A DNA stretch of 64,000 nucleotides from an uncultured Planctomycetales bacterium (GTDB lineage Bacteria; Omnitrophota; Gorgyraeia; Zapsychrales; Fredricksoniimonadaceae), in NCBI GenBank assembly GCA_964520655.1, contig CAZFNI010000005.1:48852-112851 (forward strand), read 5' to 3'. Below the pieces are notes generated by a model. It was given only the letters and a program-made list of their open reading frames with translations, had not been told where the DNA came from and made no database searches. Made by a program: the position numbers and the translations under genes. Below are positions 7,604 through 39,256 of this stretch, in pieces (positions within the stretch are counted from its first letter, which is position 1; each line of letters opens with the position of its first letter).

Positions 7604-8665
7604 ATGATCATCGTAGGTCTTAACCATAAAACAGCTCCGATCGAAATAAGAGAAAAGTTTTTTTTAAACCCCACTGAAGCAGATTTGTTGCTGTTGGAAT
7701 TGAAAAATAATCCCGCGATCAGTGAGGCGTTTGTTCTTTCGACGTGCAATCGCGTCGAAGTGTACCTTAAATCTATCCATCGTGATCTGCCAAAAGATTT
7801 TGTCCTGCAGTTGATATCAAAAGTCAAAAAAACGCAGCTGCCTGCTGAATTGCTACAGCATCTGTATTTTTATGAAGGGCAGGACGCTGTTGAACATTTA
7901 TTAAAAGTGACCAGCGGACTGGATTCACTGGTCATTGGTGAAAAGCAAATATTAGGCCAAGTCAAGAATGCGGTGGAAAGAGCAAGAGAATTAGGAACGA
8001 TCTCACGATATTTTAATATTTTGACGAACATCGCTATCAGGGCAGGGAAAAAATCACAGCAAGAAACCAATATTTCTTTTGGCGGCTCTTCTATCAGCTG
8101 GGCAGCGATCGCGATGGCAGAGCAGCTATTGGGAGATCTGGCGGGGAAATGTGTTCTGGTCATTGGTGCGGGTAAAATGGGGGAGCTGGCATTAAGGAAT
8201 TTAAATGACAAGGGCGTCGGCAAACTTTATTTGATGAACCGCAACGGAGAGAAGGCGGAACGTTTAGCGAAAGAATACAATGGGGTTCCGGCCTCATTCT
8301 GGGACATACAAAAACTATTGTTGGAGATCGATCTGTGTATTTGTTCAGTGGGAGCGCCGCACCATATCCTGGAAAGTTCCAATCTTAGTAAGCTTCTTCC
8401 AAAACGAGAAGGAAAGGAGCTAGTGTTCATTGATATTTCCATGCCGCGCAACATTGACCCGGACATAGGACTGCTGCCTTCTGTTAAGTTGAGATCGATC
8501 GATGATTTATCTGAGGTGGTTAACGAAAATTTAAAAAAGAGACAGGGCTCTGTCGGCGATGTTCATTCGATCATCCGGCAGAAAATGCTGGAATTTGAAA
8601 TTAAGCTTGAAAAGCTAAAAGCATTGAACAATTCCGATTTCTTTGAACCCAAAGAGAATAAATAA
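7604..8665 (+). CDS. hemA: glutamyl-tRNA reductase, short form (353 aa, abbreviated C-terminal dimerisation region)
   Basis: MIIVGLNHKTAPIEIREKF...STCNRVEVY catalytic Cys motif. NADPH-binding GAGKMGELA. Lies 11 nt downstream of the receiver gene. Confidence 0.9.
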   Translation: MIIVGLNHKTAPIEIREKFFLNPTEADLLLLELKNNPAISEAFVLSTCNRVEVYLKSIHRDLPKDFVLQLISKVKKTQLPAELLQHLYFYEGQDAVEHLLKVTSGLDSLVIGEKQILGQVKNAVERARELGTISRYFNILTNIAIRAGKKSQQETNISFGGSSISWAAIAMAEQLLGDLAGKCVLVIGAGKMGELALRNLNDKGVGKLYLMNRNGEKAERLAKEYNGVPASFWDIQKLLLEIDLCICSVGAPHHILESSNLSKLLPKREGKELVFIDISMPRNIDPDIGLLPSVKLRSIDDLSEVVNENLKKRQGSVGDVHSIIRQKMLEFEIKLEKLKALNNSDFFEPKENK

Positions 8666-8668
8666 CTT

Positions 8669-8833
8669 ATGAAAGATATTGGCTGGACAATCCTGGCTGA
8701 ATTCCTATTTCTATTTTTTGCAGGTTATTTTATGGATCAGCATTGGGGAACTGGGTGTGTTTGGACGTTGACCGGTATTGGCCTGGCTTTTGTGATGATC
8801 GGATATGAGATCTGGAAGTTAACCAAGAAATAA
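8669..8833 (+). CDS. AtpZ/AtpI-like small membrane protein (54 aa, 2 TM) preceding atpB
   Basis: Translation found by hand: MKDIGWTILAEFLFLFFAGYFMDQHWGTGCVWTLTGIGLAFVMIGYEIWKLTKK. Starts 3 nt after the hemA stop. Position and two-helix topology match the ATPase_gene1 family. Below the 60-aa cutoff of the ORF track. Confidence 0.6.
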   Translation: MKDIGWTILAEFLFLFFAGYFMDQHWGTGCVWTLTGIGLAFVMIGYEIWKLTKK

Positions 8834-8879
8834 ACATATTTGCTTGATTCTCCAAAGGATATAAATTACTATATCTGCC

Positions 8880-9659
8880 ATGCAAGCTTCAGGCCACGCA
8901 GAACCTTTTCTGTTAGACCAATACGTGATTCATCATATCCAGGATTCAAAAGAGTGGCATTTACCATTCTTAGAGCCTATTCATTTGCCTGGATTCTTGT
9001 CCATGCATTCTCTTATGTTGATTTTTTGCATGGGACTGCTGATATATTTATTTTGTTTTGCCTACCGAAAGAATGACCGCGTTCCTACAGGTGTAACCAA
9101 TTTATTAGAGTCATTCGTGCAGTTTGTCCGTGATGAGATCGCGATCCCCTCACTGGGGCATGAAGATGGGATAAAATTGACCCCACTTTTTTGCACACTG
9201 TTTTTCTTTATCCTGGGCCTGAATATCATTGGTCAGATCCCCTTGTTTGCCGCGGCAACAGCCAATATCAGCGTGACAGCCCCGCTGGCATTGATCGTAT
9301 TTTATATCATGACTGTAGGGGCCATACAAAAGAATGGTTTTGGCGGATTTTTGAAGGCTTTTGTCCCTTCAGGCGTTCCCAAATTGATCTTGCTACTGAT
9401 CGTCCCGTTAGAAGTGCTGGGCTTATTCATTAAAACATTTGCCTTGATGATCCGCTTGTTTGCCAATATGCTGGCAGGTCACATGGTTGTTTCGTCATTA
9501 TTAGGATTGGTAGTGCTGTTTGGGGCTTGGGCGACCCCTGCGATCGCCTTGGCGGTAGGTATATCGTTACTTGAAGTCCTGGTTGTTTTTTTGCAGGCGT
9601 ATATTTTTGTTTTATTGTCAGCGGTGTTTATCGGACAGATCCATCATCCGGAACATTAA
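8880..9659 (+). CDS. atpB: F0F1 ATP synthase subunit a
   Basis: Conserved stator arginine context LMIRLFANMLAGHMVV. 5-6 TM helices. Confidence 0.9.
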   Translation: MQASGHAEPFLLDQYVIHHIQDSKEWHLPFLEPIHLPGFLSMHSLMLIFCMGLLIYLFCFAYRKNDRVPTGVTNLLESFVQFVRDEIAIPSLGHEDGIKLTPLFCTLFFFILGLNIIGQIPLFAAATANISVTAPLALIVFYIMTVGAIQKNGFGGFLKAFVPSGVPKLILLLIVPLEVLGLFIKTFALMIRLFANMLAGHMVVSSLLGLVVLFGAWATPAIALAVGISLLEVLVVFLQAYIFVLLSAVFIGQIHHPEH

Positions 9660-9675
9660 TCATTCAACATCCTAA

Positions 9676-9927
<252 letters not shown>

Positions 9928-9938
9928 AGGATCCAATT

Positions 9939-10466
9939 ATGGAGAATACTTCAGTTGAAGCAAAAGTTGCTGCTTCATCCGGCGGTAATTTTTTAAGTCC
10001 AGAGCTTTCCATGATGCTCTTGACCTGGCTGACCTTTTTTATTTTGCTGGCTATTTTAAAGAAATTCGCTTTTAAGCCGATACTGGAAACCCTGCAGAAA
10101 CGAGAGGATTTTATCCGTAAGTCATTAGATGACGCGGATAAAGCCAAGCAACAGTTGGCTCAAATAGATCTTGAAAAAACCCAGATCATCAATACAGCCA
10201 AGGCTCAGGCAGCCAGCATCATTGATGAAGCGCGCAAAGCTGCGACTGTGATTGCTCATGAAACAGAGAATAAAGCTAGGACCAATGCTCAGGAGATGCT
10301 GACGAATGCCCAATCCCAGATCGAGGGAGAACGGCAAAAGGTACGTTTGGCTTTAAGGAAGGAAAGTGTTGACGTGGCCATACAGCTGGCTGGAAAGATC
10401 CTTAAGGAAAATACGGATACTGACAAGAACAGACGGCTTGTACAAGAGGCTGTTAAAGAACTATGA
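9939..10466 (+). CDS. atpF: F0F1 ATP synthase subunit b
   Basis: Single N-terminal TM helix followed by a long charged helix (KAKQQLAQIDLEKTQIINTAKAQAASIIDEARKAA). Start taken at MENTSVEA (ORF-track start 9891 is a possible alternative). Confidence 0.85.
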   Translation: MENTSVEAKVAASSGGNFLSPELSMMLLTWLTFFILLAILKKFAFKPILETLQKREDFIRKSLDDADKAKQQLAQIDLEKTQIINTAKAQAASIIDEARKAATVIAHETENKARTNAQEMLTNAQSQIEGERQKVRLALRKESVDVAIQLAGKILKENTDTDKNRRLVQEAVKEL

Positions 10467-10999
10467 GTTCCATTCAGATCTGTCAACGGTATGCGAAAAG
10501 CTTATATTCTTTGGCCCAGGATCAAGGGGTTGTTGAAGAGGTTTATGCCTGTTTACAATCCCTGGGACAGATCATTGAGCAGAGTGCGGACCTGCGGGAT
10601 TTTTTAGGGAATCCGTTGCTTGCGCAGTCGGAACGCCAAAAAGTCATCGCAGCGGTTTTTTCTGGAAAAGTCCCTGCGTTGGTAGAAAAATTTTTATATT
10701 TTATCAATCAAAAGAACCGCTTAAATCGATTAAGAGGTATCATCGACGCATTTGATGCTTTATATCTTCAGGCGCATAATCGGTTGCGTGCTCAGGTTCA
10801 GGTCGCTTTACCGCTAGAGCTGTCTGTGAAAGAGCAGATCTTGGCGCAATTAAGCAGGAAATATGGTAAGGATGTGCTGGCTTCATGGCAGATCCGCCAG
10901 GAGATCTTGGGTGGTTTTCGTATATTGATCGAAGGATATTTGCATGATTATAGTTTTACGGATCAATTGAATAAATACCGTCAGGAAGTTTTAGGTTGA
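10463..10999 (+). CDS. atpH: F0F1 ATP synthase subunit delta (OSCP)
   Basis: Start [18 protein letters not shown] typical of OSCP family. ATGA overlap with atpF. Confidence 0.85.
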
Positions 11000-11036
11000 C
11001 GGTGAAGCTGGTGCATATAACAAAAGAGGGAATACA

Positions 11037-12551
11037 ATGGCGAATCAATTAAATCCAGATGAAGTAAGTTCAATTTTAAAAAGAGAACTGAGCGATTTCA
11101 AAAGTAAGGTTGAGACTTATGAGATCGGTACGGTGCTCAACGTCGGCGACGGTATTGCACGTGTTCATGGTTTAAACAATGTCATGTCGGGTGAGATCGT
11201 TGAGTTTTCCAATGGTGTAAAGGGGATCGCGCTGAATTTGGAGCAGGATAATGTTGGGGTGGCTGTATTCGGAGAGGATTATCTGGTCAAGGAAGGCGAC
11301 GAAGTGCGCCGGACGGGTAAGATCGCCACAGTCCCTGCAGGCGAAGCCTTGTTGGGGCGTATTGTCGACGGATTAGGAACGCCAATTGATGGACAAGGTC
11401 CGGCAAAAGCAACATCCTATCAACAGATCGAGCTTAAAGCGCCGGGGATCATCGATCGCAAGAATGTGCATGAACCCATGCAGACAGGGATCAAGGTTAT
11501 CGATGCTTTGACGCCTATTGGCCGAGGGCAGCGTGAGTTGATCATCGGAGACCGCAAGACTGGTAAAACAACGCTTGCGATCGATGCGATCATTAACCAA
11601 AAAGGAAAAGGTGTTTATTGCTTTTATGTGGCGATAGGGCAAAAGAGGTCTACGGTTGTTCAAATTTATGAAAAGCTCAAGAAGTACGGGGCTATGGAGT
11701 ATACGACCATTATCGCGGCAACCGCTTCTGATCCGGCCCCGATGCAATTTTTGTCCCCTTATGCCGGATGCGCGATGGCGGAATATTTCCGGGATAACGG
11801 CAAACATGCGCTGATTATTTATGATGACCTGACAAAACAAGCTCAGGCTTACCGTCAATTGTCATTATTGTTGCGCCGTCCGCCAGGACGGGAAGCATAT
11901 CCTGGGGATATTTTCTATTTGCATAGCCGTTTGCTGGAAAGAGCGGCAAAGTTAAGTGATGCCAAGGGGGCGGGCAGTTTAACGGCTCTGCCGATCATCG
12001 AAACGCAGGCGGGTGACGTTTCGGCCTATATTCCGACGAACGTGATCTCGATCACGGATGGTCAAATATTTCTGGATACGGATCTCTTTAACGCAGGTCA
12101 GCGTCCAGCCATTAATGCAGGATTGTCTGTGTCCCGCGTCGGAGGTGATGCCCAGGTCAAAGCCATGAAGCAAACAGCGGGAAGTTTGCGACTGGAATTA
12201 GCGCAATACCGTGAATTAGCAGCATTTTCACAGTTTGCCTCGGACTTAGATCCGGCCACGCGCAAGCAGTTAGACCGCGGCAAGCGTTTGATGGAGTTGA
12301 TCAAGCAGGGCATACAAGTACCTTTACCTGTGGTTAAGCAGGTCGCCATCATTTACGCGGGTGTCAATGGCTACTTGGATGATATGCCTGTCGGAAAGGT
12401 CAAGGCATTTGAAGAGTATCTGCATATTCAGCTTGATGCTAAATACCAGTCCTTCGTGGAGATGTTCAACAAGAACTTGAGCATGACCGATGAGATCAAG
12501 GATGCGTTAAAGAAAATATTAACAGATGTTAAAGGGACGTTCGCAGGATGA
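11037..12551 (+). CDS. atpA: F0F1 ATP synthase subunit alpha
   Basis: Walker A GDRKTGKT and ATP-synt_ab signatures. 504 aa. Confidence 0.97.
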
Positions 12552-13414
12552 TCGGTATCAGGGAATATAATAAAAAGATCGGGTCTCTCAAAAATACCCG
12601 TAAGATGACAAAGACCATGAAAATGGTCTCTGCCAGTAAATTCAAAAGGGCCTACAAAGCTCAGTCCAATGCGCAGGAATATGCCCTAAAACTTGGCGAT
12701 CTTGTTGCCCGTTTATCCTCATTCTCTGACGGCCGCCACCCTTTGATGAAAACAAAGAAAGTCAATAACAATGCCCTGATCCTTGTCGTTACCTCTGATA
12801 AAGGCTTGTGCGGAGGGTTTAACAATAATCTTGTCCGTGAGATCAAACGGTGGCATAAAGAAAATCCTTACAAATACACCAAGCTGGATTTTTCATTCTG
12901 CGGCAAAAGAGGGTATATGATGTTCCGCCGGCATGTGACCATAAAAACGTTCTTTGAAGATGTGACGGTAAAACCTTCGTTTAAGGATGCCCTCAGGGTT
13001 TCGGCAGATCTCAAAGAAAGGTTTATCAACGGGGAATATGATGAGGTGTATATCGCTTATAATCGTTTTAATTCCCCATTGTCTCAAACACCTGTTATTG
13101 AAAAGATCCTCCCTTTAAGCACAGCCAATGCTCCCAAAGCAATTAATGCTTCTACCGGTGATTATGAATATGAACCCGCACAGCAGGAACTTTTTGATCT
13201 CTTGGTCCCGAAATTCTTGGATTTTAAGATCTTTTACACGTTCTTGGAAAATGCAGCAGGCGAACATGGGGCTCGTATGACCGCCATGGACAAGGCCTCA
13301 TCGAACACGGCGGATCTGATCGACCGGTATACATTACTGCGTAACAGGGCGCGTCAGGCGGCAATTACGACAGAACTTATTGAGATCATTTCAGGTGCGG
13401 AAGCTCTTAAATAA
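12548..13414 (+). CDS. atpG: F0F1 ATP synthase subunit gamma
   Basis: [22 protein letters not shown]-terminal gamma signature. ATGA overlap with atpA. Confidence 0.9.
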
Positions 13415-15090
<1,676 letters not shown>

Positions 15091-15101
15091 GCGAGGTGTC
15101 T

Positions 15102-15275
15102 ATGCCCGTCTTAACGGAAAAAAAACCGATCACGGTATTTAAGATCAAGAACCGCAGCGGATATGCAGCGATCTGCGACGAGCATTTAACCGAAGGCCAA
15201 AGCGAAGCTGAAGCCATCGACCGCATGAACAAAGCGTTAGACCGCACGTTGCGTAAAGAAACACAAAAACAATGA
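15102..15275 (+). CDS. HicB-like / UPF0150-family small protein (57 aa)
   Basis: Hand translation: MPVLTEKKPITVFKIKNRSGYAAICDEHLTEGQSEAEAIDRMNKALDRTLRKETQKQ. The GYAAICDEHLTEGQSEAEAIDRMNKAL segment resembles the Y-A-CPEL...G.T.EEA..N..EA core of the HicB/UPF0150 fold. Stop overlaps the NUDIX ATG (ATGA). Lies 11 nt after atpC. Confidence 0.5.
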   Translation: MPVLTEKKPITVFKIKNRSGYAAICDEHLTEGQSEAEAIDRMNKALDRTLRKETQKQ

Positions 15276-15832
15276 AAAAGATCGGCTCCAAGATCGTTTA
15301 TGAAGGCAGCTGGTTATCTGTCGAAGAAGCCCAATACACCAATCAAGATGGTAAGCTCTATACATGGGAATCGGTTCACCGCAAGCGTTCCAGCGTTGGA
15401 GTTGTTGTCGTTGCCAAATTAGTTCCTTCGAATCGTTTTATTCTTATCAAACAATTCCGCCCGGCCATTGAAGGGTATATTCTTAGTGTTCCTGCCGGTC
15501 TTGGGTTCGATGATCCTGATCATGGGTTGGTTGAATTAAAGGAAGAAACCGGCTATGTGGGACGCATTGTAGAAACCAGTCCCGTTCTTAAAACAGGTGC
15601 TTCATTGATCAACGACAGTGCCCGTATCGTCTATGTTGAAGTCGATGAACATTTACCAGCTAATCAGCACCCTGTCCAGGAGCTTGAATCAGCTGAAGAT
15701 ATCCAGGTTTGTTTGGTCCAAGACACCGCAGCAAAAGATTATATTTTAGATGAAGCCAAAAAAGGTGTTCATATTGCGGCGAATTTATGGTATCTTTTCG
15801 GTTTGCCTAAATATTTGCCGAAAGAAAAATAA
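15272..15832 (+). CDS. NUDIX hydrolase (ADP-ribose pyrophosphatase-like)
   Basis: Nudix box region PAGLGFDDPDHGLVELKEETGYVG. Confidence 0.75.
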   Translation: MKKIGSKIVYEGSWLSVEEAQYTNQDGKLYTWESVHRKRSSVGVVVVAKLVPSNRFILIKQFRPAIEGYILSVPAGLGFDDPDHGLVELKEETGYVGRIVETSPVLKTGASLINDSARIVYVEVDEHLPANQHPVQELESAEDIQVCLVQDTAAKDYILDEAKKGVHIAANLWYLFGLPKYLPKEK

Positions 15833-16720
15833 ATGCCTTACGATCCTCAGAATCCTCAACAAAGTCACAATGAATCCCAAGAAAAAAAAGGACTTTTCGG
15901 TGTCATCATTCACTCCTTTTTTGTGGTCCCATTCTTACTGGCCATTCTTAGCGTGTTGATGTTCGCTGCGGTAAGGATCCTGACAATGGAAAAACATTCC
16001 GTTTATGATTATTTGAACGACATCAAAAAGGGAGGGATCGATAAGCGCTGGCAAGCTGCATTTGAACTGTCCCGTATTTTAACAAGTCAGAAAGAAGTGC
16101 CTCAAGACCAGCAGTTCATCACAAAGATGGAAGAGGCTTTTAATGCATCATCCAGCGACGATGAACGCGTCAGGCAATATTTGATCCTGGCAATGGGCCG
16201 CAGCCAGCGCGTGGAATTTGTAAATCCGCTTTTAAAAGCGCTTCCACGTGAAAAAGATGAAAATGTATATGCAATTATCACTGCACTTGGTATACTGAAA
16301 TCCAATATTTCGGTCAGTGCTCTTTTAAAATATTTGGATCATCCCAATGCGCGCATCCGCTTGGCATCGGTCATCTCTTTAGGACAGATCGCTGCACCGC
16401 AGACAGCGGGTTCTCTAAAGAAAATGCTTCAAGACAGTGAACCCAACGTAACCTGGGATGCGGCTATAGCTTTGGCTAAAATGGGAGACAAGAGCGGTAA
16501 GGCGATAATTTTAAGTTTGATGGATAGGGAGCACCTGAAAAATTATCCAAACCTCTCACCCGAAAATGTCAGTAAGATCATTAGCGTTGCTATTAATGCG
16601 ACATTTGCCTGGAAGGATGATGACATTAAGCAGTCATTGATCAAATTATTTCAGATCGATCCTAATATGAATGTTCGTGCACTGGCGCATCATAGTTTAG
16701 AAAAATACAATAGTCCTTAA
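15833..16720 (+). CDS. membrane-anchored HEAT-repeat (PBS-lyase-like) protein
   Basis: N-terminal TM helix (FFVVPFLLAILSVLMFAAV) then repeated helical pairs (RWQAAFELSRIL / ERVRQYLILAMG / IRLASVISLGQIA / TWDAAIALAKMGD / NVRALAHHSLEK). ATG directly follows the NUDIX stop. Confidence 0.7.
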   Translation: MPYDPQNPQQSHNESQEKKGLFGVIIHSFFVVPFLLAILSVLMFAAVRILTMEKHSVYDYLNDIKKGGIDKRWQAAFELSRILTSQKEVPQDQQFITKMEEAFNASSSDDERVRQYLILAMGRSQRVEFVNPLLKALPREKDENVYAIITALGILKSNISVSALLKYLDHPNARIRLASVISLGQIAAPQTAGSLKKMLQDSEPNVTWDAAIALAKMGDKSGKAIILSLMDREHLKNYPNLSPENVSKIISVAINATFAWKDDDIKQSLIKLFQIDPNMNVRALAHHSLEKYNSP

Positions 16721-16721: not shown

Positions 16722-17258
16722 ATGACAGAATCAAAATCTCCAGTTGGAAAATCAGTTGATCAAACAAATGCTACTATGGATCGACGTTCATTTATTAAAT
16801 GGTCTGTAGTCGGCTGGTCGGCTTTTGCGGCAGCCGTTGGCGGATATGGAACTCTGGTGTTGCGTTATTTGTTTCCTAATGTTTTGTTCGAGCCAGTGCA
16901 GACATTTAGAGCGGGTGTGCCGGAAGATTTTGAACCTCGAACTGTATCCGAAAAGTTCAAAGATCAGTATGGTGTTTGGATCGTCCGTGATGAAGAGAAG
17001 ATCTATGCATTATCCACTGTTTGTACGCATTTAGGATGTACCCCCAACTGGTCGCCTGCTGAAAATAAATTCAAATGTCCATGCCACGGCAGTGGGTTTT
17101 ATACCACGGGAGTTAATTTTGAAGGGCCAGCTCCAAGGCCTTTAGAACGTTTTAAGATCGGGCTTTCCGATGAAGGCGATATTGTTGTAGATAAAACCAA
17201 AAAATTCCAACAAGAGAAGGGTGAATGGTCTGATCCAGATTCATTCATTTTAGTTTAG
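16722..17258 (+). CDS. Rieske [2Fe-2S] subunit of a cytochrome b6-type quinol oxidising complex
   Basis: Twin-Arg signal ([22 protein letters not shown]). Rieske boxes CTHLGC and CPCHGS. Confidence 0.9.
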
Positions 17259-17262: not shown

Positions 17263-18057
17263 ATGAACGACCCCTCAAAGCCTTCATTATTTGATCGATT
17301 CAAACAAACGCAGTTTTTCCGAGCTGTTTTTCGGACTGGGGTTCCAGTAGTCACGCACCGCCAGCGGATGATGGTGGTGCTCAACAATGTGTTCCTGCAT
17401 TTACACCCCGTACGTTTACCAAAACACGCTGTAAAAGTACGTTACACCTGGTGCATGGGGGGATTGTCATTCTTTATTTTCCTGGTCCTAACAGTAACAG
17501 GCATACTGCTGATGTTTTATTATCGTCCAACAGTTGAGTATGCCTATGGAGATGTGACGGATTTAAGCCAACAGGTGCCGCTTGGGATCATGCGGGAGAT
17601 CCACCGCTGGGGCGCACATCTGATGGTGATCACAGTTTGGCTGCACATGTTCCGAGTTTTTATGACTGGTTCTTATAAGCCTCCCAGAGAGTTTAACTGG
17701 GTCATTGGTGTTGTGCTTCTTGTATTGACCATGCTCATGAGTTTTACAGGATATTTGCTTCCATGGGACCAACTGGCCATATGGGCCATTACAGTGGGCT
17801 CGAATATGGCTGGCGCAACCCCCATGGTTGGTATGGGTGGGCCGGGATCGTCACTGCTTTCCATTGGCGATGTGAATTTCGTTACTTCTGTTTCTGATGC
17901 CAGATTTGCCATGCTTGGCGGTCGTTTTGTAGGGGAGAGTGCTTTATTGCGTTTTTATGTGCTGCATTGCATTGGTCTGCCGTTCGTGATCATGATCTTC
18001 ATGATCGTGCATTTTTGGCGCGTCAGAAAAGATGGCGGTATTTCAGGACCGACATAA
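17263..18057 (+). CDS. cytochrome b6-type subunit (N-terminal four-helix, b-heme His ligands)
   Basis: [20 protein letters not shown]...[18 protein letters not shown] cytochrome b signature. Split (b6/subunit IV) architecture. Confidence 0.9.
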
Positions 18058-18060: not shown

Positions 18061-19179
18061 ATGGTTGAATCGATCAAAGAGTTCATCAATATAATTGCCT
18101 CTCCTGCGATATTGTTCAATATCGTGGTCGTGGCGTATCTTATCCTTTTTCCGCCGATCAAATTCTTTGATAATATCCATAAGGCCCTGGGGATAGAAAA
18201 CCTTTGGACAAAGAAGGGTGGAATCGGCATCTTCAGTTTTCTATTTTTTGTTTTTGCTTTTGGTCTATCCGACGCCAATTTCCGCTTGATCGTATTAAAA
18301 CCTGATAATGTGCCGATCGTTGCGTTGATCTTTGTGGTTGTTTTCTTCTTATGGTTTTCCTTAAAACAAGCCAAAGAGAATGATGACGCTATCGCAAAAG
18401 GCGGGAAACCCAAAGAATGGGCTGAATCAAAAGAAAAAGTATTGGTTTTTCCTGACCTTGTTTATATTGAATTGATCGCTTTGATCGCCGCGGCCGCGCT
18501 TTTAGCTGTCTGGTCCATTGGTCTTCCAGCGCCTTTGGAAGATCCTGCCAATCCAACTGTTTCACCGAACCCCTCAAAAGCTCCCTGGTATTTTCTGGGA
18601 CTGCAGGAAATGCTGGTCTATTTTGATCCCTGGCTGGCCGGTGTTGTTTTCCCCACTGTTATCTTAGTCGGGCTGATGTCGATTCCTTTTATTGATAAGA
18701 ACCGCAAAGGCCTGGGGTACTACACCTATAAAGACCGCAAAATGGCGATCAATATCTTTATGTTCTTGTGGCTGGTGCTCTGGATCTTTTTGATCATCGT
18801 GGGTACGTTCCTGCGCGGTCCAAACTGGAATTTCTTCGGACCTTTTGAGTTCTGGGACCACTACAAATTGATCGCTTTAAATAATATCAACCTTTCGGAA
18901 TATGTGTACATGATCTGGTTGAACCGGGGGATGCCCAGCAATATTTTCTTAAGGGAACTCCCTGGATTTGTAGCACTCGTACTTTATTTCGGCCTGTTAC
19001 CACTGATATTCGCCAAAACAATATTCAAGGATCTTTATCAGAAAGTCGGTGTGGTGCGCTACAGCATTTTTGCTGTATTATTCTTGTTAGCGCTGCTGCT
19101 GCCGATCAAAATGTATTTACGCTGGCTGTTTAATATCAAATATCTGATCGCTATACCAGAATTCTTTTTTAACGTTTAA
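18061..19179 (+). CDS. subunit IV-like (cytochrome b C-terminal) protein, extended to 372 aa with extra TM helices
   Basis: PEWY-type motif region (PNPSKAPWYFLGLQEMLVYFDPW). Additional N- and C-terminal hydrophobic segments. Confidence 0.8.
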   Translation: MVESIKEFINIIASPAILFNIVVVAYLILFPPIKFFDNIHKALGIENLWTKKGGIGIFSFLFFVFAFGLSDANFRLIVLKPDNVPIVALIFVVVFFLWFSLKQAKENDDAIAKGGKPKEWAESKEKVLVFPDLVYIELIALIAAAALLAVWSIGLPAPLEDPANPTVSPNPSKAPWYFLGLQEMLVYFDPWLAGVVFPTVILVGLMSIPFIDKNRKGLGYYTYKDRKMAINIFMFLWLVLWIFLIIVGTFLRGPNWNFFGPFEFWDHYKLIALNNINLSEYVYMIWLNRGMPSNIFLRELPGFVALVLYFGLLPLIFAKTIFKDLYQKVGVVRYSIFAVLFLLALLLPIKMYLRWLFNIKYLIAIPEFFFNV

Positions 19180-19181: not shown

Positions 19182-22142
19182 ATGCCTGAGCCATTACCTC
19201 CAGAATCTCATTATAATCCAAAGCTTCTCGACAAGATCTTTGCGGCTGTCGCTGTTATTCTATTGATCTCGATCATCGGGCTATTTGCTAAAGATTATTC
19301 CAGGCAATGGAAGAATTATCAGAGAGAATTCAGGGCTTTAGAGGTTGAAAAGTCCCGTGTTAAACTTGATGAACAGGAGAATCTATTAAAGGGAAACGAG
19401 GAATATCAGGATATATTGAAAAAGCTGGAAGAAGTGACGAAAACCCTTTCAGCCAAAGCACCCCAAAGTAATGCCATAGCCACTAGATTGTCTGCCGCCC
19501 AAGCTGTGGAACGTCTGCATACCCAGCAGTATCAGTTCTCAAAAGCAAAGTATGATGCATTAAAATACCAATTTGAGAGCGCAGCTGATAAGAAAGCTTC
19601 TAATGCCCAGCAATTCAAGATCAATTTAGAGAATTTATCGACGCGCTTACAGAAACTAAGCGTATTAGTAGAGGTCGACAAGCATACAACAAAGGGAATT
19701 GAGCAAGAATTAAACGATGCACAGAAGGCTTATAAATCGATCGATAAGCAGCGACTGAATTTGGCTAAGAAAAAAGAGATCTTGGAAAAAAAACTGAAAC
19801 GCATTGATATCGCCGAAATGTCTGCGATGAATCAATTGGCTGAAATGGTCAGAGATCTGCCCATCATTGACTTGGCCAATCCGAATTATAAGATCCGCCA
19901 GATCGTTCTGAAGGATATTCCTGAAGATGTGAATTTCATGAAAGTTCCTCGTGTGGATCGCTGTACGACCTGCCACTTGGGTATTGATAATCCTGATTTT
20001 AAGGAAGCGGCCCAACCATACCGTACTCACCCAAATTTGGAATTGTACATGGATAAGAATTCTCCACACCCGTTGGATCAATTTGCCTGTACAACCTGTC
20101 ATGGGGGGCGCGGGAGAGCGACAGATTTCACGGCAGCGGCCCATACGCCTCGTAATGAAGAACAAGCCAGCGAATGGAAGAAAAAATATGGCTGGCATGA
20201 GCTGGAGCACTGGGAACACCCTATTTTACCGCTGCAATATACCCAAGCGGGTTGTTTTAAGTGCCACCAGGATCAGGGCAGTATCAAAGGAGCGGAAAAA
20301 TTAAATCTAGGGTTGACATTGATCGAACGTGCGGGATGCTACGGCTGCCATAATGTCAATAAGTACGCTTCCTGGCCGAAATCAGGACCGAATCTTGAAT
20401 ATGTCTCCAGTAAATTGACAAAAGATTGGACTTACCATTGGATCGAAAATCCCAAAGCGATCCGCCACAATGCCTGGATGCCGTCATATTTTAATCAAAC
20501 TAATAATAGTGACCCCGTATCTATAGAACGCAGCAAGCAGGAGATCAATGCCCTGGTCGAATTCCTCTTTGGCAACAGTAAGAAATTTTCTGTGGATGCA
20601 TTATCACAGAAGGGAGATTCTAAAAATGGCAAAGAATTGGTTGCGTCGCTTGGGTGCTTAGGGTGTCACCAGATCACTAAGGACAAGCCTTCAGAACCTC
20701 GAACACCAGACTCACTCCATAGGGAATTTGGCCCTAATCTGATAGGGTTAGGCAGCAAAACCACTCAGGCCTGGTTATATCAGTGGTTAAAAGATCCTAA
20801 GCGTTATCACGAAACGTCGCGTATGCCGTCGCTGCGTTTATCCGATCAGGAAGCCGCGGATATTGCGGCATTTTTGATCCAAGATAAGGATGCCAATTCG
20901 GTAAAACCTCGTCCCGCTCTCAATGAGACGGTTCTTAATGAGATCGTCATGGATTTCTTGAAAAAATCAGAATCAGTGGCGGATGCTCAGGCAAAACTCG
21001 CAACGATGGATAAAACAGCGAAACAAAAATTTGCCGGTCAGCGCTTGGTCCGTGAATATGGTTGTTTCGCCTGCCATAAGATCCCTGGATTTGAGAATGA
21101 AAAACCTATTGGTGTTGATCTCTCAGAAGAAGGTTCGAAAAGTATTGAGCGTTTGGATTTTGGTTTTGTGAAGATCGAACACAGTAAACATGCCTGGTTT
21201 AAACAAAAATTGTTAGATCCGCGTATCTTTGATCATGGTCGCGTTTTATCACCCTTGGAACGCAACAGAATGCCTAATTTCAACCTAACTCAGGATGAGG
21301 CAGATGCCTTAACAACACTGATCTTAGGGCTCGTGAAAGATAAACCAAATCAAAACAAAATGCCCAATACCTCGGTAAAAGCAGCGTTCGTGACTCAAGG
21401 TCAGAGGACGATCCGTCAGCTTAATTGCCAGGGCTGTCATATGATCGAAGGTCAAGGTGGAGGTGTGCAGTCAACTGTTGAGGACTGGCTGGTGCATTAT
21501 CAAAATAAAGATGTTAATGAAGCGAAAGCGATCTCCCGTAGTTTTTCACCGCCAAACTTGATCGGTGAAGGGGCTAAGATACAGGCTCAATGGATGTTTG
21601 AATTTTTCCATGAACCTATTGCCATCCGCCCATGGTTGAAGATCCGCATGCCAAGCTACAATTTTCATCAGGGTCAAGAGAATACATTGATCAAATATTT
21701 CAATTATTACGATGACCAGGAGTTCCCCTTTACTGAAATCTATCATGCGGATCTTTCTAAAGAAGACTATGCATCAGCCGAGAAACTTTTCTCCAAAGAA
21801 GTGTTTAATTGCGCACAATGCCACATCATCGGTAGTAAACATCCAGATGGAGCACCGGAAAACTGGGCTCCAGACTTGTCGCTGGCTTCAGAAAGGTTAA
21901 AGCCTGATTGGATCATTAAATGGATCACAAACCCGCCAGCGCTGCTTCCAGGCACAAAAATGCCTGTATTCTATGACCCGAAAGCTTTTGAAACCTCTGG
22001 TCCTCCTGATATATTTGGGGGGGATTCCAACCGTCAAATCCGTGCCTTGAGGGACTATGTCTTGTCCATTACAGCGGATCCCCAACCAACTAAATCACAT
22101 GATCCAGTTCCAGAAGCGTCCAAAGATGCTCCTGTAAAGTAA
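19182..22142 (+). CDS. membrane-anchored octaheme cytochrome c (N-terminal TM + ~200-aa coiled coil + 8 CXXCH)
   Basis: Eight CXXCH motifs: CTTCH x2, CFKCH, CYGCH, CLGCH, CFACH, CQGCH, CAQCH. The last five sit in tandem class-I cytochrome c-like units with GPNL...W...MP signatures. Residues ~40-230 are a K/E/Q-rich heptad region. Confidence 0.85.
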   Translation: MPEPLPPESHYNPKLLDKIFAAVAVILLISIIGLFAKDYSRQWKNYQREFRALEVEKSRVKLDEQENLLKGNEEYQDILKKLEEVTKTLSAKAPQSNAIATRLSAAQAVERLHTQQYQFSKAKYDALKYQFESAADKKASNAQQFKINLENLSTRLQKLSVLVEVDKHTTKGIEQELNDAQKAYKSIDKQRLNLAKKKEILEKKLKRIDIAEMSAMNQLAEMVRDLPIIDLANPNYKIRQIVLKDIPEDVNFMKVPRVDRCTTCHLGIDNPDFKEAAQPYRTHPNLELYMDKNSPHPLDQFACTTCHGGRGRATDFTAAAHTPRNEEQASEWKKKYGWHELEHWEHPILPLQYTQAGCFKCHQDQGSIKGAEKLNLGLTLIERAGCYGCHNVNKYASWPKSGPNLEYVSSKLTKDWTYHWIENPKAIRHNAWMPSYFNQTNNSDPVSIERSKQEINALVEFLFGNSKKFSVDALSQKGDSKNGKELVASLGCLGCHQITKDKPSEPRTPDSLHREFGPNLIGLGSKTTQAWLYQWLKDPKRYHETSRMPSLRLSDQEAADIAAFLIQDKDANSVKPRPALNETVLNEIVMDFLKKSESVADAQAKLATMDKTAKQKFAGQRLVREYGCFACHKIPGFENEKPIGVDLSEEGSKSIERLDFGFVKIEHSKHAWFKQKLLDPRIFDHGRVLSPLERNRMPNFNLTQDEADALTTLILGLVKDKPNQNKMPNTSVKAAFVTQGQRTIRQLNCQGCHMIEGQGGGVQSTVEDWLVHYQNKDVNEAKAISRSFSPPNLIGEGAKIQAQWMFEFFHEPIAIRPWLKIRMPSYNFHQGQENTLIKYFNYYDDQEFPFTEIYHADLSKEDYASAEKLFSKEVFNCAQCHIIGSKHPDGAPENWAPDLSLASERLKPDWIIKWITNPPALLPGTKMPVFYDPKAFETSGPPDIFGGDSNRQIRALRDYVLSITADPQPTKSHDPVPEASKDAPVK

Positions 22143-22144: not shown

Positions 22145-22918
22145 ATGCTTGTCAAAATCCTTATTTTGTCGTTTTTGATATTTGGAGTAACCTATCCGTT
22201 ATTCTTTTGGCTTAGTCATAAAAACCCCATTAAACACAATTTTCACCGATTTCACTTAGCTTGTCCTATAGTAGTCGCGGGTCTAGCGATCCTGGGTCTT
22301 TGGTTATTCCCGTTTGATGGCCTTTTAAGAGGGGCAGCCCTGTTATGGTTACTGGCGGCGTTGATCATAACTGCCTTATTTTGGAATAAGCAAGGCGTTC
22401 ATCTATTAACGATAACTTTTTTGAGTATTGGGGGGATCATTGTGTATGGCGCTATATTCGCCCATCTTGTTGCTGATGATCTTTGGTATGTGTTGGTGTC
22501 GATATTATCCGGACTTATTGTGAGTGCGGCCTTTTATGCCATGAATCTAGGCCATTTTTATTTGAATGTCCTGGGCCTGAAAGTCGACCATTTAAAGTCT
22601 GCTGTTGATCTTCTGGGACGCTTGATCGGCCTGCGATTCGTCTATGAGATCATGGTCCTGCCATTGATTCAGTTGAACTTCATTGGGGAGAAAATATCCG
22701 CGTTCAAATTTATGCTCACCCTGGACGGGTTTATGATATGGGTGGGTATTTTCTTTGGTGTTATTTTTCCATTAGGAGCTCTTTATTTCGCCAGGGGAAC
22801 ACTGCAGTTAAGAAATACTCAAGCGACAACGGGAATTTTATATGTAGTCCTATCCGGCATTCTTTTAGGCGATCTAATTTTGAAATATTCATTGATCAAG
22901 TACCATATTCCATTGTGA
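22145..22918 (+). CDS. polytopic membrane protein (7-8 TM), unknown function, co-transcribed with the bc-type complex
   Basis: Hydrophobic throughout. ATG 3 nt after the octaheme gene stop. No recognisable motif. Confidence 0.55.
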   Translation: MLVKILILSFLIFGVTYPLFFWLSHKNPIKHNFHRFHLACPIVVAGLAILGLWLFPFDGLLRGAALLWLLAALIITALFWNKQGVHLLTITFLSIGGIIVYGAIFAHLVADDLWYVLVSILSGLIVSAAFYAMNLGHFYLNVLGLKVDHLKSAVDLLGRLIGLRFVYEIMVLPLIQLNFIGEKISAFKFMLTLDGFMIWVGIFFGVIFPLGALYFARGTLQLRNTQATTGILYVVLSGILLGDLILKYSLIKYHIPL

Positions 22919-23331
22919 TCCCGACGATATCCCGTTTCTGTCCATCGTGTCAAAAATATGCTCGTCTTGCAATAAAGGACGGTACAGAACTTCAATGTCC
23001 CCATTGTCAGAATGGTTGGGGACAAGTTAAAAGTGTTAGTGAGGTATTCCAGAATTGTCCTGTTTGTTCATGCCGACAGTTTTATGTCGATAAGGATTTT
23101 AACCAGGTCATCGGTTTTATCATCATGGGGGTAGGGGTTCTGTTGGTACCAGCGACCTACGGACTTAGTCTTCCTGTTTTTGCCTTCATTGATTGGCTGC
23201 TGTATAAGAAAGTACCCCGTCTGATCGCTTGCTACCGTTGCGGTAGTGAATACCGTCATTTCAAGATACCTGCAGCATTAAAACCATTCCAGCATCACAT
23301 CGGTCTTAAATACGACAAATATAGGAAATAA
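22915..23331 (+). CDS. double zinc-ribbon membrane protein (4 x CxxC flanking one TM helix)
   Basis: CPSC-x15-CPHC and CPVC...(TM: VIGFIIMGVGVLLVPATYGL)...CYRC. The only in-frame start after the upstream stop is GTG 22915, which overlaps the TGA of the preceding gene (GTGA). The ORF-track ATG at 22738 would overlap 181 nt. Confidence 0.5.
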   Translation: MIPTISRFCPSCQKYARLAIKDGTELQCPHCQNGWGQVKSVSEVFQNCPVCSCRQFYVDKDFNQVIGFIIMGVGVLLVPATYGLSLPVFAFIDWLLYKKVPRLIACYRCGSEYRHFKIPAALKPFQHHIGLKYDKYRK

Positions 23332-23335: not shown

Positions 23336-24232
23336 TCAGGACCTCTTACGATCATTGCGGTTGATCATATCGTAGAAGAGCTGCGTGGCTTTTGAGAACA
23401 CTTTCTGGTTCTTATAGATGATAGATAGCGGGCGTTTAAAATTCATGTCTTTGACAGGGAGGATATCAAAGGACTTGCTTTTTATCTCTTGAGTAACGGT
23501 GGAGATAGGCAGTATCGAGCAGCCCACGCCCACATCGATCGCGTTCTTGATAGTTTCAATATTACTGTATACTTTGATGATATTGGGGCGGATCGATTTA
23601 TCGTGAAGGTATTGCTCGATCGCTTTTCCTGTTTGTGTCGTTGTATCAAAGCCAATAAAATCAACTCCATTCAAGTCTTCCAGGCGAAGGTTCCTTTTTT
23701 TTAGTAGAGGGTGGAGCTTAGACTGAACCAGCACCAGATCTTCCTCAGAAAAGATCTTTACCGTACATCCCGGCATGGGCTTTGGGTAAGCGACAAGCCC
23801 GAAGTCGGCTGTACCTTTTTTTATAGCCTCGTAAATATCATCCTGATGCATATATTCCAAGTTCACATTAATGTCAGGGTATTTCTTTAAGAGATGTTGA
23901 AGGATAGGCTTTAGCTGGTAAAGCCCCATGGTATAGATGGAAACAATGTGTATTGTTCCGGCATAATGCTTATTGTTCTCAGTGATCTTCGAGTGGGCAT
24001 TAGCGTATACTTCCAGCATTTGGCGCGCATAGGACATCAATATCTGCCCATCAGGCGTCAGAACGATCTTTTTTAAGGAACGTTCGAAAAGGATGCAGTG
24101 GAAATGCTTCTCAAGGATCTGGATATGCTGAGTCACGGCTGGCTGAGTGATGTTGTTCTTTTCTGCCGCAAGACGGAATGACCCGGTTTCAGCCACAGAG
24201 ATAAAAGTTTTAAAGAAGAATAAATTGATCAT
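23336..24232 (-). CDS. LysR-family transcriptional regulator
   Basis: N-terminal HTH FKTFISVAETGSFRLAAEKNNITQPAVTQHIQILE. LysR substrate-binding domain. Divergent from the nikM-hox operon. Confidence 0.9.
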   Translation of the reverse strand: MINLFFFKTFISVAETGSFRLAAEKNNITQPAVTQHIQILEKHFHCILFERSLKKIVLTPDGQILMSYARQMLEVYANAHSKITENNKHYAGTIHIVSIYTMGLYQLKPILQHLLKKYPDINVNLEYMHQDDIYEAIKKGTADFGLVAYPKPMPGCTVKIFSEEDLVLVQSKLHPLLKKRNLRLEDLNGVDFIGFDTTTQTGKAIEQYLHDKSIRPNIIKVYSNIETIKNAIDVGVGCSILPISTVTQEIKSKSFDILPVKDMNFKRPLSIIYKNQKVFSKATQLFYDMINRNDRKRS

Positions 24233-24358
24233 ATAGATCTCCCATAAGAAAAACTTATTACAAGTATAACATAAACCAACATGCGGTAAAGGTCAAAATG
24301 GTGTAATGTTGATGCATTATTAGTTCACGCGTTAAGGATCATAATTAAGGAGCAAAAG

Positions 24359-25252
24359 ATGCATATCCCACAACACATGCTTCAAGGCAATATTTGTCCA
24401 GTGACACTGGCAGTCGGCGTGGCCAGTACGGCTGCGGCTTTGTATTTTACGACCAAATCCCAGGATGAAGTTTCGCCAGCGCGTTTCGCCAGCGTTACGG
24501 CCTTGATCTTTGGGCTGCAGATGATCAATTTCCCTGTTGCAAACGGCACCAGCGGACATCTTATTGGAGGCGTCCTGGCTGCGGCACTGTTAGGTGTCCC
24601 CAGAGCCATTCTTTCCATAGTCCTTGTGTTATTGGCTCAGGTATTGTTTTTCGGGGATGGCGGACTGGACGCATTTGGAGCCAATATTTTAAATATGGCT
24701 ATCATAGGTGCTGGAGTTGGTGGAATTGGCATGCTGATGCTAAAACGCTTGCGGATAAGTCAGCCAGTTTTGATCTTCATGGCTTCCGCATCCTCAGTCG
24801 TGCTGGCAAGTCTTGCATGCACTGTTGAGGTCACATCCTCAAATCAGATCGGGTTTACGACCATGGCTCAAGCGATGATCCCATTGCATGCGCTGATAGG
24901 GATAGGAGAAGGAGTCCTGAGTGTTGCTGTATTTTATTTGTGTAGCGCTACACTAAAAGAACAAAGCAATATTCTTCCTCTTTCAATGAGAGCTTTACTT
25001 TTAATGAGTGCAGTAGCATTTGTAACTCCTTTTGCCAGTTCATTTCCTGATGGTCTAGAGCACACGATAGATCTGACGCAAATTATTTCCACAGGGAATA
25101 CATCCTTCCTGGCACTGTTAAATGATTATCAGACCCCAGGGGTCACTAATCCTTTTTGCTCAACCATAATAGCCGCAATGCTGGGCATGGGGATCGTCTA
25201 CATTTTTTCAATGGCAGTCATCCGGGTGAGGTACGCATATGATCATGGCTAA
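24359..25252 (+). CDS. ECF-type Ni/Co uptake substrate-capture protein NikM/CbiM with C-terminal PDGLE domain
   Basis: Conserved N-terminal MHIP (metal-binding N-terminus of the CbiM/NikM family). ~6 TM. C-terminal region carries the literal PDGLE motif (SSFPDGLEHT). Good RBS AAGGAG. Stop overlaps the hoxE start. Confidence 0.7.
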   Translation: MHIPQHMLQGNICPVTLAVGVASTAAALYFTTKSQDEVSPARFASVTALIFGLQMINFPVANGTSGHLIGGVLAAALLGVPRAILSIVLVLLAQVLFFGDGGLDAFGANILNMAIIGAGVGGIGMLMLKRLRISQPVLIFMASASSVVLASLACTVEVTSSNQIGFTTMAQAMIPLHALIGIGEGVLSVAVFYLCSATLKEQSNILPLSMRALLLMSAVAFVTPFASSFPDGLEHTIDLTQIISTGNTSFLALLNDYQTPGVTNPFCSTIIAAMLGMGIVYIFSMAVIRVRYAYDHG

Positions 25253-25760
25253 AAAAAAGACATATCTGGATATAGAGCTTCCCAAAAGCACTGATCCGCG
25301 ACTTAAACAGATCACCTTAAAGATGAAGAAGGAGAATTATCGTCCTGAATCATTGATCGAAGTGCTGCACACCGCTCAGAATGCTTACGGTTATTTACCG
25401 ATGAGCGTGCTGGCCTATATAACCCGGGAATTGAAATTACCGCCATCCAGGGTTTTCGGTACAGTTACGTTCTATCACTTTTTCTCTTTAAAATCCAAAG
25501 GTGATCATACTTGCCTGGTCTGTACAGGAACAGCCTGTTATGTGAAAGGCGCTCAGGCTGTACTGGATGAAGTAGAAAAAAATTTTGGTCTCAAATCAGG
25601 GGAAGTATCCAAAGACAATAAATTGGGCGTTCAGTCAGCACGCTGTATCGGGGCCTGCGGGCTCGCACCAGCTGTGGTTATTGACGAAGATGTCATTTCA
25701 AGAGCAAAACCTGAGGATGTCACCAGGATCCTCAAAGAAAAGGTGGGAGTGGCGAAATGA
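25239..25760 (+). CDS. hoxE: NAD-reducing [NiFe] hydrogenase diaphorase subunit HoxE (NuoE-like 2Fe-2S)
   Basis: CLVCTGTACYVKG...CIGACGLAP thioredoxin-like 2Fe-2S motifs. Start may be the ATG at 25245. Confidence 0.85.
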   Translation: MIMAKKKTYLDIELPKSTDPRLKQITLKMKKENYRPESLIEVLHTAQNAYGYLPMSVLAYITRELKLPPSRVFGTVTFYHFFSLKSKGDHTCLVCTGTACYVKGAQAVLDEVEKNFGLKSGEVSKDNKLGVQSARCIGACGLAPAVVIDEDVISRAKPEDVTRILKEKVGVAK

Positions 25761-27421: not shown

Positions 27422-27441
27422 AATTGGGATGAGGAGAAGTC

Positions 27442-28149
27442 ATGGCAAAAATCACACTGACAATAGATGATAAACAAATTGAAACAGAGCAGGGCAAGTC
27501 CCTCCTGGAGGTTTGCCGGGAAAATGGTGTCAATATCCCGACACTTTGCCATCTTGACGGGCTGACAGACGTTGGTGCCTGCCGGTTGTGCCTTGTTGAG
27601 ATCGAAGGAGTATCTAAGCTTTTGCCGACTTGCACAACTAAAGCGCAGGCCAACCAGGTCGTTAAGACGCAAACGGACAAGCTTAAAAAATACCGCCGGA
27701 TGATCGTGGAGATGTTCTTCGCGGAAGGGAACCACATCTGTTCTATCTGTATCGCAAACAATAACTGTGAACTCCAGGCGCTTGGATACCAGGTTGGAAT
27801 GGAGCATGTGCGGTTCCCATATATTTTTAAGAAGGCACGTGTGGATGCGTCGCATCCTTGGTTTGTGATGGACTATAACCGCTGCGTGCTCTGCACGCGC
27901 TGCGTTCGTGTTTGCGGTGAGGTTGAAGGAGCTCATAACTGGAGCGTAATGAACCGCGGACACCAGGCCAGGATCATTTCAGATTTTGACACTCCTTGGG
28001 GCGAATCCAGCACCTGTACCGATTGCAGCAAATGCGTTGATGCCTGTCCCACTGGCGCTCTTTGGCCCAAAAGGGGTATTCAGGGTCAGGTCAGGAAAAA
28101 TCCTCAAAAGATATCGCAACTTGTTGAAAAAAGGAAAATGAACCTATGA
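27442..28149 (+). CDS. hoxU: NAD-reducing hydrogenase subunit HoxU (NuoG-like 2Fe-2S/4Fe-4S)
   Basis: CRLCLVEIEG, CSICIANNNCELQ and CTDCSKCVDACPTGA cluster motifs. Confidence 0.9.
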   Translation: MAKITLTIDDKQIETEQGKSLLEVCRENGVNIPTLCHLDGLTDVGACRLCLVEIEGVSKLLPTCTTKAQANQVVKTQTDKLKKYRRMIVEMFFAEGNHICSICIANNNCELQALGYQVGMEHVRFPYIFKKARVDASHPWFVMDYNRCVLCTRCVRVCGEVEGAHNWSVMNRGHQARIISDFDTPWGESSTCTDCSKCVDACPTGALWPKRGIQGQVRKNPQKISQLVEKRKMNL

Positions 28150-30550: not shown

Positions 30551-30553
30551 TGT

Positions 30554-30901: not shown

Positions 30902-30919
30902 ATAATCCAGGATATTCTG

Positions 30920-33214: not shown

Positions 33215-33218
33215 CATG

Positions 33219-35603: not shown

Positions 35604-35626
35604 GCTCAAACTAAAGAAATAATATT

Positions 35627-35655: not shown

Positions 35656-35690
35656 TTTAAATTCATAGAAATTTATACATAGGGAGCAAT

Positions 35691-39254: not shown

Positions 39255-39256
39255 AC

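Follow-up and report, generated by a model that had tools for sequence, protein, structure and literature searches.

The 64,000-nucleotide (nt) stretch of an uncultured Omnitrophota genome analysed here (contig CAZFNI010000005.1; hereafter the window) contains three tightly packed genes, encoding proteins of 57, 186, and 295 amino acids (aa), between the ATP synthase operon and an operon for a Rieske/cytochrome b6-type complex (the bc-type operon). We interpret this region as the junction of two packed respiratory operons, in which the three genes have three separate explanations, and we put the probability of this interpretation at about 0.7. According to this interpretation, (i) the 295-aa gene, which encodes a membrane-anchored HEAT-repeat protein, opens the bc-type operon; (ii) the 186-aa gene, which encodes a divergent Nudix protein, would normally be the last gene of the atp operon in this clade, translationally coupled to atpC; and (iii) the 57-aa gene would be a free-standing gene for a β3-α micro-protein, similar in fold to double-stranded RNA-binding domains (dsRBDs) and to the N-terminal domain of HicB, which appears to move among many neighbourhoods and, in the lineage of the window, would have landed between atpC and the Nudix gene. 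The micro-protein would be neither an antitoxin nor a respiratory subunit.

All coordinates are positions in the window, and all genes discussed are on the plus strand unless stated. The genes atpBEFHAGDC, the 57-aa, 186-aa, and 295-aa genes, and the genes for the Rieske protein, cytochrome b, and the 372-aa, 986-aa, 257-aa, and ~138-aa proteins form a run without interruption on this strand. The map of open reading frames (ORFs) placed the three ORFs at 15102–15275, 15272–15832, and 15833–16720, exactly where the initial annotation of this DNA had put them. The 57-aa and Nudix genes overlap by an ATGA (15272–15275), as atpD and atpC do at 14836; the TAA of the Nudix gene directly abuts the ATG of the HEAT gene (15830–15835); and the HEAT gene is linked to the Rieske gene by a 1-nt gap (16720/16722), as had been described. 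The initial annotation had also chained the three genes to atpC through ATGA or stop-ATG junctions, which is correct for the two inner junctions, whereas the atpC stop codon (TAA, 15088–15090) is separated from ATG 15102 of the 57-aa gene by an 11-nt spacer carrying a Shine-Dalgarno-like sequence. No terminator-like hairpin was found on the plus strand between 14836 and 17162 (from atpC to about halfway through the Rieske gene), promoter-like matches were no commoner than in shuffled sequence, and no Rfam RNA family matched in the window. The tight packing with both flanking operons and the lack of a terminator-like site between them agree with the proposed membership of the three genes in one respiratory transcription unit. 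Pfam and NCBIfam scans likewise agreed that none of the three genes belongs to a known ATP synthase or bc-complex subunit family. For each of the three proteins, the homologues with names point towards Candidatus Omnitrophota.

The initial annotation had further proposed that the three genes together constitute an uncharacterised regulatory or assembly module. Our comparison of ~180 related loci (labelled L001–L180) did not bear this out: the trio was largely absent from orthologous loci, and its members have three separate histories in synteny. The full trio was present only in close relatives of the window (L001/L099, L097/L100, and L103); four HEAT-type bc operons (L094, L095, L179, and L180) have neither the 57-aa gene nor the Nudix gene; the Nudix gene occurs without the other two, either at the end of the atp operon or elsewhere (L004–L011); and the 57-aa gene was found in other contexts, outside respiratory neighbourhoods, in 76 of the 80 loci centred on it. 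The trio is a lineage-specific juxtaposition, and the sole pairing that recurs beyond it is that of the 57-aa and Nudix genes. A module dedicated to the regulation or assembly of the downstream bc-type complex would account for the chain of ATGA, TAAATG, and 1-nt gap and for the order atpC-57-aa-Nudix-HEAT-Rieske kept in the close relatives, but the loci in which the genes occur apart make such a module very unlikely. Genes densely packed where two operons meet can look like a module.

In all 7 lineages in which we followed it, the HEAT gene is the direct upstream neighbour of the Rieske gene, that is, in the window and in L001, L097, L094, L095, L179, and L180, whose HEAT proteins are 71%, 59%, 57%, 50%, 49%, and 47% identical to that of the window, respectively. 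In 5 of the 7 lineages, the HEAT and Rieske genes overlap by 4–14 nt or are separated by gaps of 1–3 nt; L180 and L179 have larger called gaps, of 64 nt and ~230 nt, respectively. The two genes are always followed by those for cytochrome b6, a subunit IV-like protein, a ~1000-aa cytochrome c, and the ~257-aa and ~136-aa proteins. The upstream neighbour of the HEAT gene varies: it is the Nudix gene in the window, L001, and L097, a PilZ gene in L094, atpC in L095 and L179, and, across a 340-nt gap, an aldehyde dehydrogenase gene in L180. Because the adjacency to the Rieske gene is constant and the upstream neighbours vary, we take the HEAT gene to be the first gene of the bc-type operon. The strict adjacency in the 7 lineages backs the suggestion of the initial annotation that the HEAT protein could assemble or scaffold the downstream complex. 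We infer that the HEAT protein associates with the Omnitrophota b6-type complex, for which it is most likely a candidate accessory subunit or assembly factor.

Searches with the HEAT protein gave 870 matches; the top 120 are orthologues over the full length, with 45–100% identity. Its repeats were recognised by Pfam (HEAT_2, 2.4e-21; HEAT, 5.9e-9; and HEAT_PBS, 6.2e-6), and the AlphaFold2 model consists of one transmembrane helix (residues 21–51) followed by an α-solenoid (residues 57–293), with a predicted local distance difference test (pLDDT) score of 91.6. Across 27 orthologues of only 45–70% overall identity, neither the N-terminal part of this helix (H27, S28, F29, F30, P33, and F34, in its first half) nor the KRWQAAFELS segment after it varies, which points to a specific intramembrane partner. 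The invariant helix would dock onto the membrane core of the Rieske/b6 complex, and the α-solenoid, exposed either to the cytoplasm or to the periplasm, would serve as a protein- or cofactor-binding surface. Against the PDB, the HEAT sequence profile matched a designed alphaRep best (5.8e-73), followed by deoxyhypusine hydroxylase (1.5e-9) and CpcE (1.5e-7); the closest natural structural neighbours of the model are the E/F-type bilin lyases. A weak match of the profile (3.9e-5) was also obtained with chain d2 of PDB entry 10lk, a 291-aa “HEAT repeat domain-containing protein” of near-equal length in a large multi-chain entry.

The CxGG motif of cytochrome b6 is the covalent attachment site of haem cn (ci). 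Only cyanobacteria and plastids have the CCB maturation system, and the attachment of haem cn elsewhere in prokaryotes “remains a mystery” (PMC5600118). In the loci compared here, every cytochrome b gene downstream of a HEAT gene encodes YTWCMGG, which aligns with FYCIGG of PetB. The HEAT-less bc operons of L003 and L006 have cytochrome oxidase genes ahead of the cytochrome b gene, whose product is ~40% identical and shows T-L-G-S at the CxGG position. The HEAT protein could be a maturation factor that inserts haem cn and attaches it covalently to the CxGG cysteine where CCB is lacking, and would then be a membrane-tethered relative of the E/F-type bilin lyases, which make the same Cys-vinyl thioether on a tetrapyrrole. 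Consistent with these proposals are the sequence-profile matches to NblB (2.4e-12, NCBIfam) and CpcE, and the co-occurrence of the HEAT gene with a CxGG-type b6 in 7 of 7 cases and its absence beside a non-CxGG cytochrome b in 2 of 2. However, scaffolds of PBS-type HEAT-like repeats are widespread, and the protein falls far short of the NCBIfam equivalog cut-offs for the lyase families (NblB, 46.8 against 300 bits; CpeY, 22.3 against 600; CpcE, 21.2 against 330); the correlation with CxGG is confounded, as the two types of bc operon are distant paralogues; and attachment of haem cn would need the solenoid at the membrane's n-side, while the charges flanking the transmembrane helix leave its topology ambiguous. 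We know of no equivalent gene beside the CxGG cytochrome b of Firmicutes, which also counts against a maturation role. We consider both the maturation factor and the kinship with the lyases unlikely. Compared with the E/F-type phycobilin lyases (CpcE/CpcF and MpeQ) and NblB, the HEAT protein has an additional N-terminal transmembrane anchor with an invariant face, comes from a non-photosynthetic phylum, and in every case has its gene in a Rieske/cytochrome b6 operon rather than among phycobiliprotein genes. Complexes of the Rieske/cytochrome b type play a central part in respiration and photosynthesis and acquire lineage-specific partners; here, a conserved HEAT membrane protein is linked with a b6-type complex with the haem cn motif in a phylum without cultured respiratory representatives, and its gene is a concrete, testable candidate for the open question of haem cn attachment outside cyanobacteria and plastids (PMC5600118).

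The 186-aa protein has 287 homologues, the best 120 of which are 64–100% identical to it. A profile of 14 family members matched human NUDT5 in the PDB at 6e-27 over residues 4–153, followed by NudF (5c7q, 1.9e-10) and ADP-ribose pyrophosphatases (1e-8), and it is this comparison with solved structures that upholds the NUDIX label of the initial annotation; the Pfam NUDIX model PF00293 did not match the protein of the window at E ≤ 0.1, and the NCBIfam matches to NudE/YffH were weak. The Nudix homology is transitive, because a Clostridium homologue with 42% identity matches PF00293 at 2.8e-8. Instead of the canonical 23-residue box GX5EX7REUXEEXGU, the window protein has GLGFDDPDHGLVELKEETGY, in which the Glu of GX5E is missing and the Arg is replaced by Val. 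The consensus of the Omnitrophota clade, PAGLGFxDPxHxLVELKEETGY, is 3 residues shorter than the canonical box, with Val, Ile, or Glu at the position of the REUXEE arginine; relatives in Clostridium, Fibrobacterales, Asgard archaea, and other groups keep RELKEETGY. The Pfam model misses the protein because the box of the clade is shorter and lacks this Glu and Arg. The EUXEEXGU part of the box, that is to say, the metal-binding E-x-x-E-E-x-G-Y, is retained and invariant. The protein shares full-length homology with human NUDT5 and bacterial NudF, together with the NUDT5-type motifs TWE..R, KQFRP, and ELxEETGY. Residues W32, E33, R37, R63, P64, E142, and D143 are invariant and align with the NUDT5 motifs, which outside the Nudix box include an acidic residue in the C-terminal strand; by comparison with NUDT5 structures, these residues would serve in substrate binding. 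Judging from these alignments, the 186-aa protein is a divergent member of the NUDT5/NudF branch, and it likely has ADP-sugar pyrophosphatase activity.

Unlike NUDT5 and NudF, the Omnitrophota protein is usually encoded at the end of the atp operon. The Nudix gene directly follows atpC, with an overlap or a gap of ≤~14 nt, in L005, L006, L007, L008, and L011, whose proteins are 66–71% identical to that of the window and which have neither the 57-aa nor the HEAT gene. In L005, the genes after the Nudix gene are on the opposite strand, and the Nudix gene therefore ends the atp operon. In L003, a long-read assembly with many frameshifted genes, two adjacent genes (265 and 263 aa; 8401–9995) without a Pfam match lie between atpC and the Nudix gene, and in L004, L009, L010, and more distant genomes, the Nudix gene is located elsewhere. 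The enzyme probably has a housekeeping role in the adenylate/ADP-ribose pool and would be co-expressed with the ATP synthase. A conserved link between the Nudix and atp genes in Fibrobacterales was considered and rejected: there, 2.7 kb that include a gene on the opposite strand separate the Nudix gene from atpC. The NUDT5-like subfamily with ELKEETGY also occurs in distant lineages at 30–44% identity, namely Lokiarchaeia (L032 and L035), Woesearchaeota (L027), and Clostridium (L016–L020). This wide distribution, which includes Asgard archaea, could be relevant to how eukaryotic NUDT5 arose.

The 57-aa protein has 71 homologues of 48–65 aa with 60–91% identity, in which the core TVFKIKNRSGYAAIC..HLTEG is nearly invariant. 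Divergence of the gene from its orthologues lies mostly at third codon positions (for example, 25 differences at third against 3 + 2 at first and second positions), and the comparison with L106 gave 21 synonymous and 5 non-synonymous codon changes. Because of this conservation and the codon divergence dominated by third positions, the ORF is a genuine gene under purifying selection, and the possibility of a spurious ORF, which the initial annotation had kept in mind, can be set aside. Modelled by AlphaFold2 from the family alignment (pLDDT 81.7), the protein forms a β-β-β-α unit similar to the N-terminal domain of HicB, followed by a basic tail. The structural scores of the model to MmoD, dsRBDs, and ribosome hibernation factors are equal to or above those to HicB. 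No Pfam or NCBIfam family matched the protein, and a search of the PDB with the family profile gave nothing significant. A hidden Markov model of the family searched against 1.84 billion representative proteins yielded no more than 38 cluster representatives at E ≤ 0.001, with nothing that connects the family to a larger one. In the searches made here, the family occurs almost only in Omnitrophota-labelled sequences and unlabelled metagenome sequences. The two small families are worth annotating: the Nudix clade with the truncated box and this 50-residue micro-protein, so far almost confined to Omnitrophota.

The initial annotation had called the 57-aa protein HicB-like and had found it unexpected without a HicA partner. 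The small, common fold and the lack of a HicA neighbour stand; membership of the HicB/UPF0150 sequence family does not. Among 64 family members, not one matched HicB, UPF0150, or DUF1902 in Pfam even at E ≤ 10, and only scattered chance matches were obtained. No HicA-like ORF lies beside the gene on either strand, the antisense ORFs have no family match, and no toxins are found among the identifiable neighbours of the homologues in related loci. The C-terminal ribbon-helix-helix or helix-turn-helix DNA-binding domain is absent, as the chain ends after a single helix at residue 57. Thus, compared with the HicB N-terminal domain, UPF0150, and dsRBD-like domains, which it resembles in fold, the family is small, has its own core motif FKIKNRSGYAAIC..HLTEG, and lacks a profile match, a HicA partner, and a DNA-binding domain. 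Together with the equal or better structural scores of other folds and a housekeeping-like distribution within one phylum, these results make an orphan HicB-type antitoxin extremely unlikely.

In the 80 loci centred on the 57-aa gene, the commonest context (~28 loci) is between a flavin reductase gene and an acyl-CoA dehydrogenase/patatin pair; ~15 have the gene beside those for GreA, a UbiA-like protein, a deaminase, a UvrD-like helicase, or rpsO-pnp (S15-PNPase); the Nudix gene is downstream in 4, of which 3 are the trio and the fourth, L106, has the order ruvB-57-aa-Nudix without atp or HEAT genes; and the remaining contexts are truncated or have no family label. Homologues directly follow greA in L141, L156, L165, L167, and L172, and lie between the UvrD-like helicase gene and rpsO-pnp in L123, L147, and L159. 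The transcription and RNA-turnover neighbourhoods, the dsRBD-like fold, and the basic tail hint at a function connected with nucleic acids. The position of the gene 11 nt after atpC, with its own Shine-Dalgarno sequence, is kept in L001, L097, and L099 and would suit a small protein that regulates or inhibits the F1Fo ATP synthase, with a role by analogy like that of cyanobacterial AtpTheta or the alphaproteobacterial zeta subunit; most members of the family, however, are encoded away from atp genes, and several related atp operons do not contain the gene, which renders such a regulator highly improbable.

Several observations weigh against our interpretation. The 57-aa gene adjoins the Nudix gene in three arrangements, namely the trio (ATGA overlap), L106 (3-nt gap), and L015, where the order is Nudix-57-aa and the Nudix protein is only 46% identical, which hints that a view of independent genes underplays a functional link. 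Relatives with HEAT and Nudix proteins 59–79% identical to those of the window keep the trio, and the packing itself may have selective value. With the canonical Glu and Arg missing from the Nudix box, the predicted activity is not guaranteed. The HEAT solenoid has structural neighbours of a generic kind for PBS-type HEAT-like repeats, the designed alphaRep scoring highest, and the charges flanking the transmembrane helix are nearly symmetric, so that either orientation fits the positive-inside rule. Gene order alone cannot separate a subunit from an assembly factor or a regulator. The first of these points could be accommodated if the 57-aa protein and the Nudix enzyme act as a pair, for example, with an RNA- or nucleotide-binding micro-protein that targets or regulates the pyrophosphatase, possibly towards nucleotide-capped RNA. 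The predicted dsRBD-like fold and the GreA, S15-PNPase, and UvrD-like helicase neighbours are in keeping with such a pair, which is nevertheless rather improbable, as the pairing is seen in only 4 of the 80 loci centred on the 57-aa gene and in 3 lineages among ~20 Omnitrophota loci centred on the Nudix gene, and the commonest context of the 57-aa gene is that with the flavin reductase and acyl-CoA dehydrogenase genes.

The features of the region, from atpC to the end of the bc-type operon, are listed in the table.

Table. Features at the junction of the atp and bc-type operons, in window coordinates.
Feature	Position	Strand	Evidence
atpC (F1 epsilon), final canonical gene of atpBEFHAGDC (operon 8880–15090)	14836..15090	+	Pfam ATP-synt_DE_N 1.9e-20, ORF map
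Shine-Dalgarno-like GAGGTG, with GAGG 5 nt before the ATG of the 57-aa gene	15093..15098	+	sequence; homologues start at the equivalent Met
57-aa micro-protein, core TVFKIKNRSGYAAIC..HLTEG, predicted β-β-β-α plus basic C-terminal tail	15102..15275	+	homologues, codon pattern, AlphaFold2
186-aa NUDT5-like protein, Nudix superfamily, likely ADP-sugar (ADP-ribose) pyrophosphatase	15272..15832	+	profile against PDB, NCBIfam, homologue
Shortened Nudix box PAGLGFDDPDHGLVELKEETGY	15491..15556	+	family alignment; alignment with NUDT5 and non-Omnitrophota relatives
295-aa single-pass membrane protein, PBS-type HEAT-like solenoid	15833..16720	+	Pfam HEAT_2, AlphaFold2, Rieske adjacency
Transmembrane helix of the HEAT protein (residues ~21–51), invariant face H27 S28 F29 F30 P33 F34	15893..15985	+	alignment, model
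Rieske [2Fe-2S] protein, twin-arginine leader MDRRSF, CTHLGC/CPCHGS motifs	16722..17258	+	Pfam Rieske 1.9e-11, NCBIfam PetC-like
Four-helix cytochrome b6-type subunit	17263..18057	+	Pfam Cytochrome_B 1.1e-43; NCBIfam ExtP-like 6.7e-81, cytochrome b6 3e-54
CxGG motif (C64-M-G-G) of cytochrome b6, start of helix A	17452..17463	+	alignment with PetB FYCIGG
372-aa subunit IV-like membrane protein	18061..19179	+	Pfam Cytochrom_B_C 4.8e-6, NCBIfam ExtQ 9e-16
986-aa membrane-anchored multihaem cytochrome c	19182..22142	+	Pfam Cytochrom_C, Cytochrome_C7, Paired_CXXCH
257-aa polytopic membrane protein	22145..22918	+	kept in L001, L095, L097, L179, L180
~138-aa Cys-rich protein (CPSC...CPHC...CPVC), start probably GTG 22915, GTGA overlap with the preceding stop	22915..23331	+	sequence

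The downstream complex is similar to b6f, to the b6c complex of Firmicutes, and to the multihaem complexes of the Planctomycetes/Geobacter type, b6f-like complexes in which cytochrome b is split and haem cn is present, in having a Rieske protein, a four-helix b6 with CxGG, a subunit IV-like protein, and a lineage-specific cytochrome c. Compared with known b6f-like complexes, the Omnitrophota operon has the additional HEAT gene in first place, the 986-aa multihaem cytochrome, and two unannotated conserved genes; modular, lineage-specific extra subunits are typical of the Rieske/cytochrome b family (PMC5600118). We found no description of a HEAT-type Rieske/b6 operon in the searchable literature, and the text of a large Omnitrophota survey contains neither “Rieske” nor “bc1” (PMC10066038). 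The two unannotated genes, for the 257-aa protein (no Pfam or NCBIfam match) and the ~138-aa protein (no Pfam match), follow the multihaem cytochrome gene in every HEAT-type operon examined, with genes of 132–143 aa at the position of the ~138-aa gene in related loci, and their products are probably further parts of the complex. The best NCBIfam match of the cytochrome b is to the Geobacter ExtP/ExtQ pair, the subunit IV-like protein at 372 aa is about twice the usual length, and the 986-aa cytochrome c has a long N-terminal coiled-coil-like region.

In L001, L095, L097, and L180, the bc-type operon runs directly into CarboxypepD_reg-COX1. In the window, these two genes are at 40335–41045 and 41063–42796, and ~17 kb (23336–40300) are inserted after the bc-type operon. 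The insert includes a divergent gene for a LysR regulator (23336–24232, minus strand) and genes for CbiM (24359–25252), a NuoF-like flavoprotein (25757–27421), HypF (30920–33214), and pyruvate:ferredoxin oxidoreductase (35691–39254). A second respiratory arrangement follows atpC-Nudix in L003 (11800–17700), L006 (5700–13213), and L008 (6393–11385). Its genes encode, in order, a CarboxypepD_reg-like protein, COX1, COX3, small subunits, COX2, a Rieske protein, and a 776-aa fusion of a cytochrome b with a cytochrome c domain, with neither the CxGG motif nor a HEAT gene.

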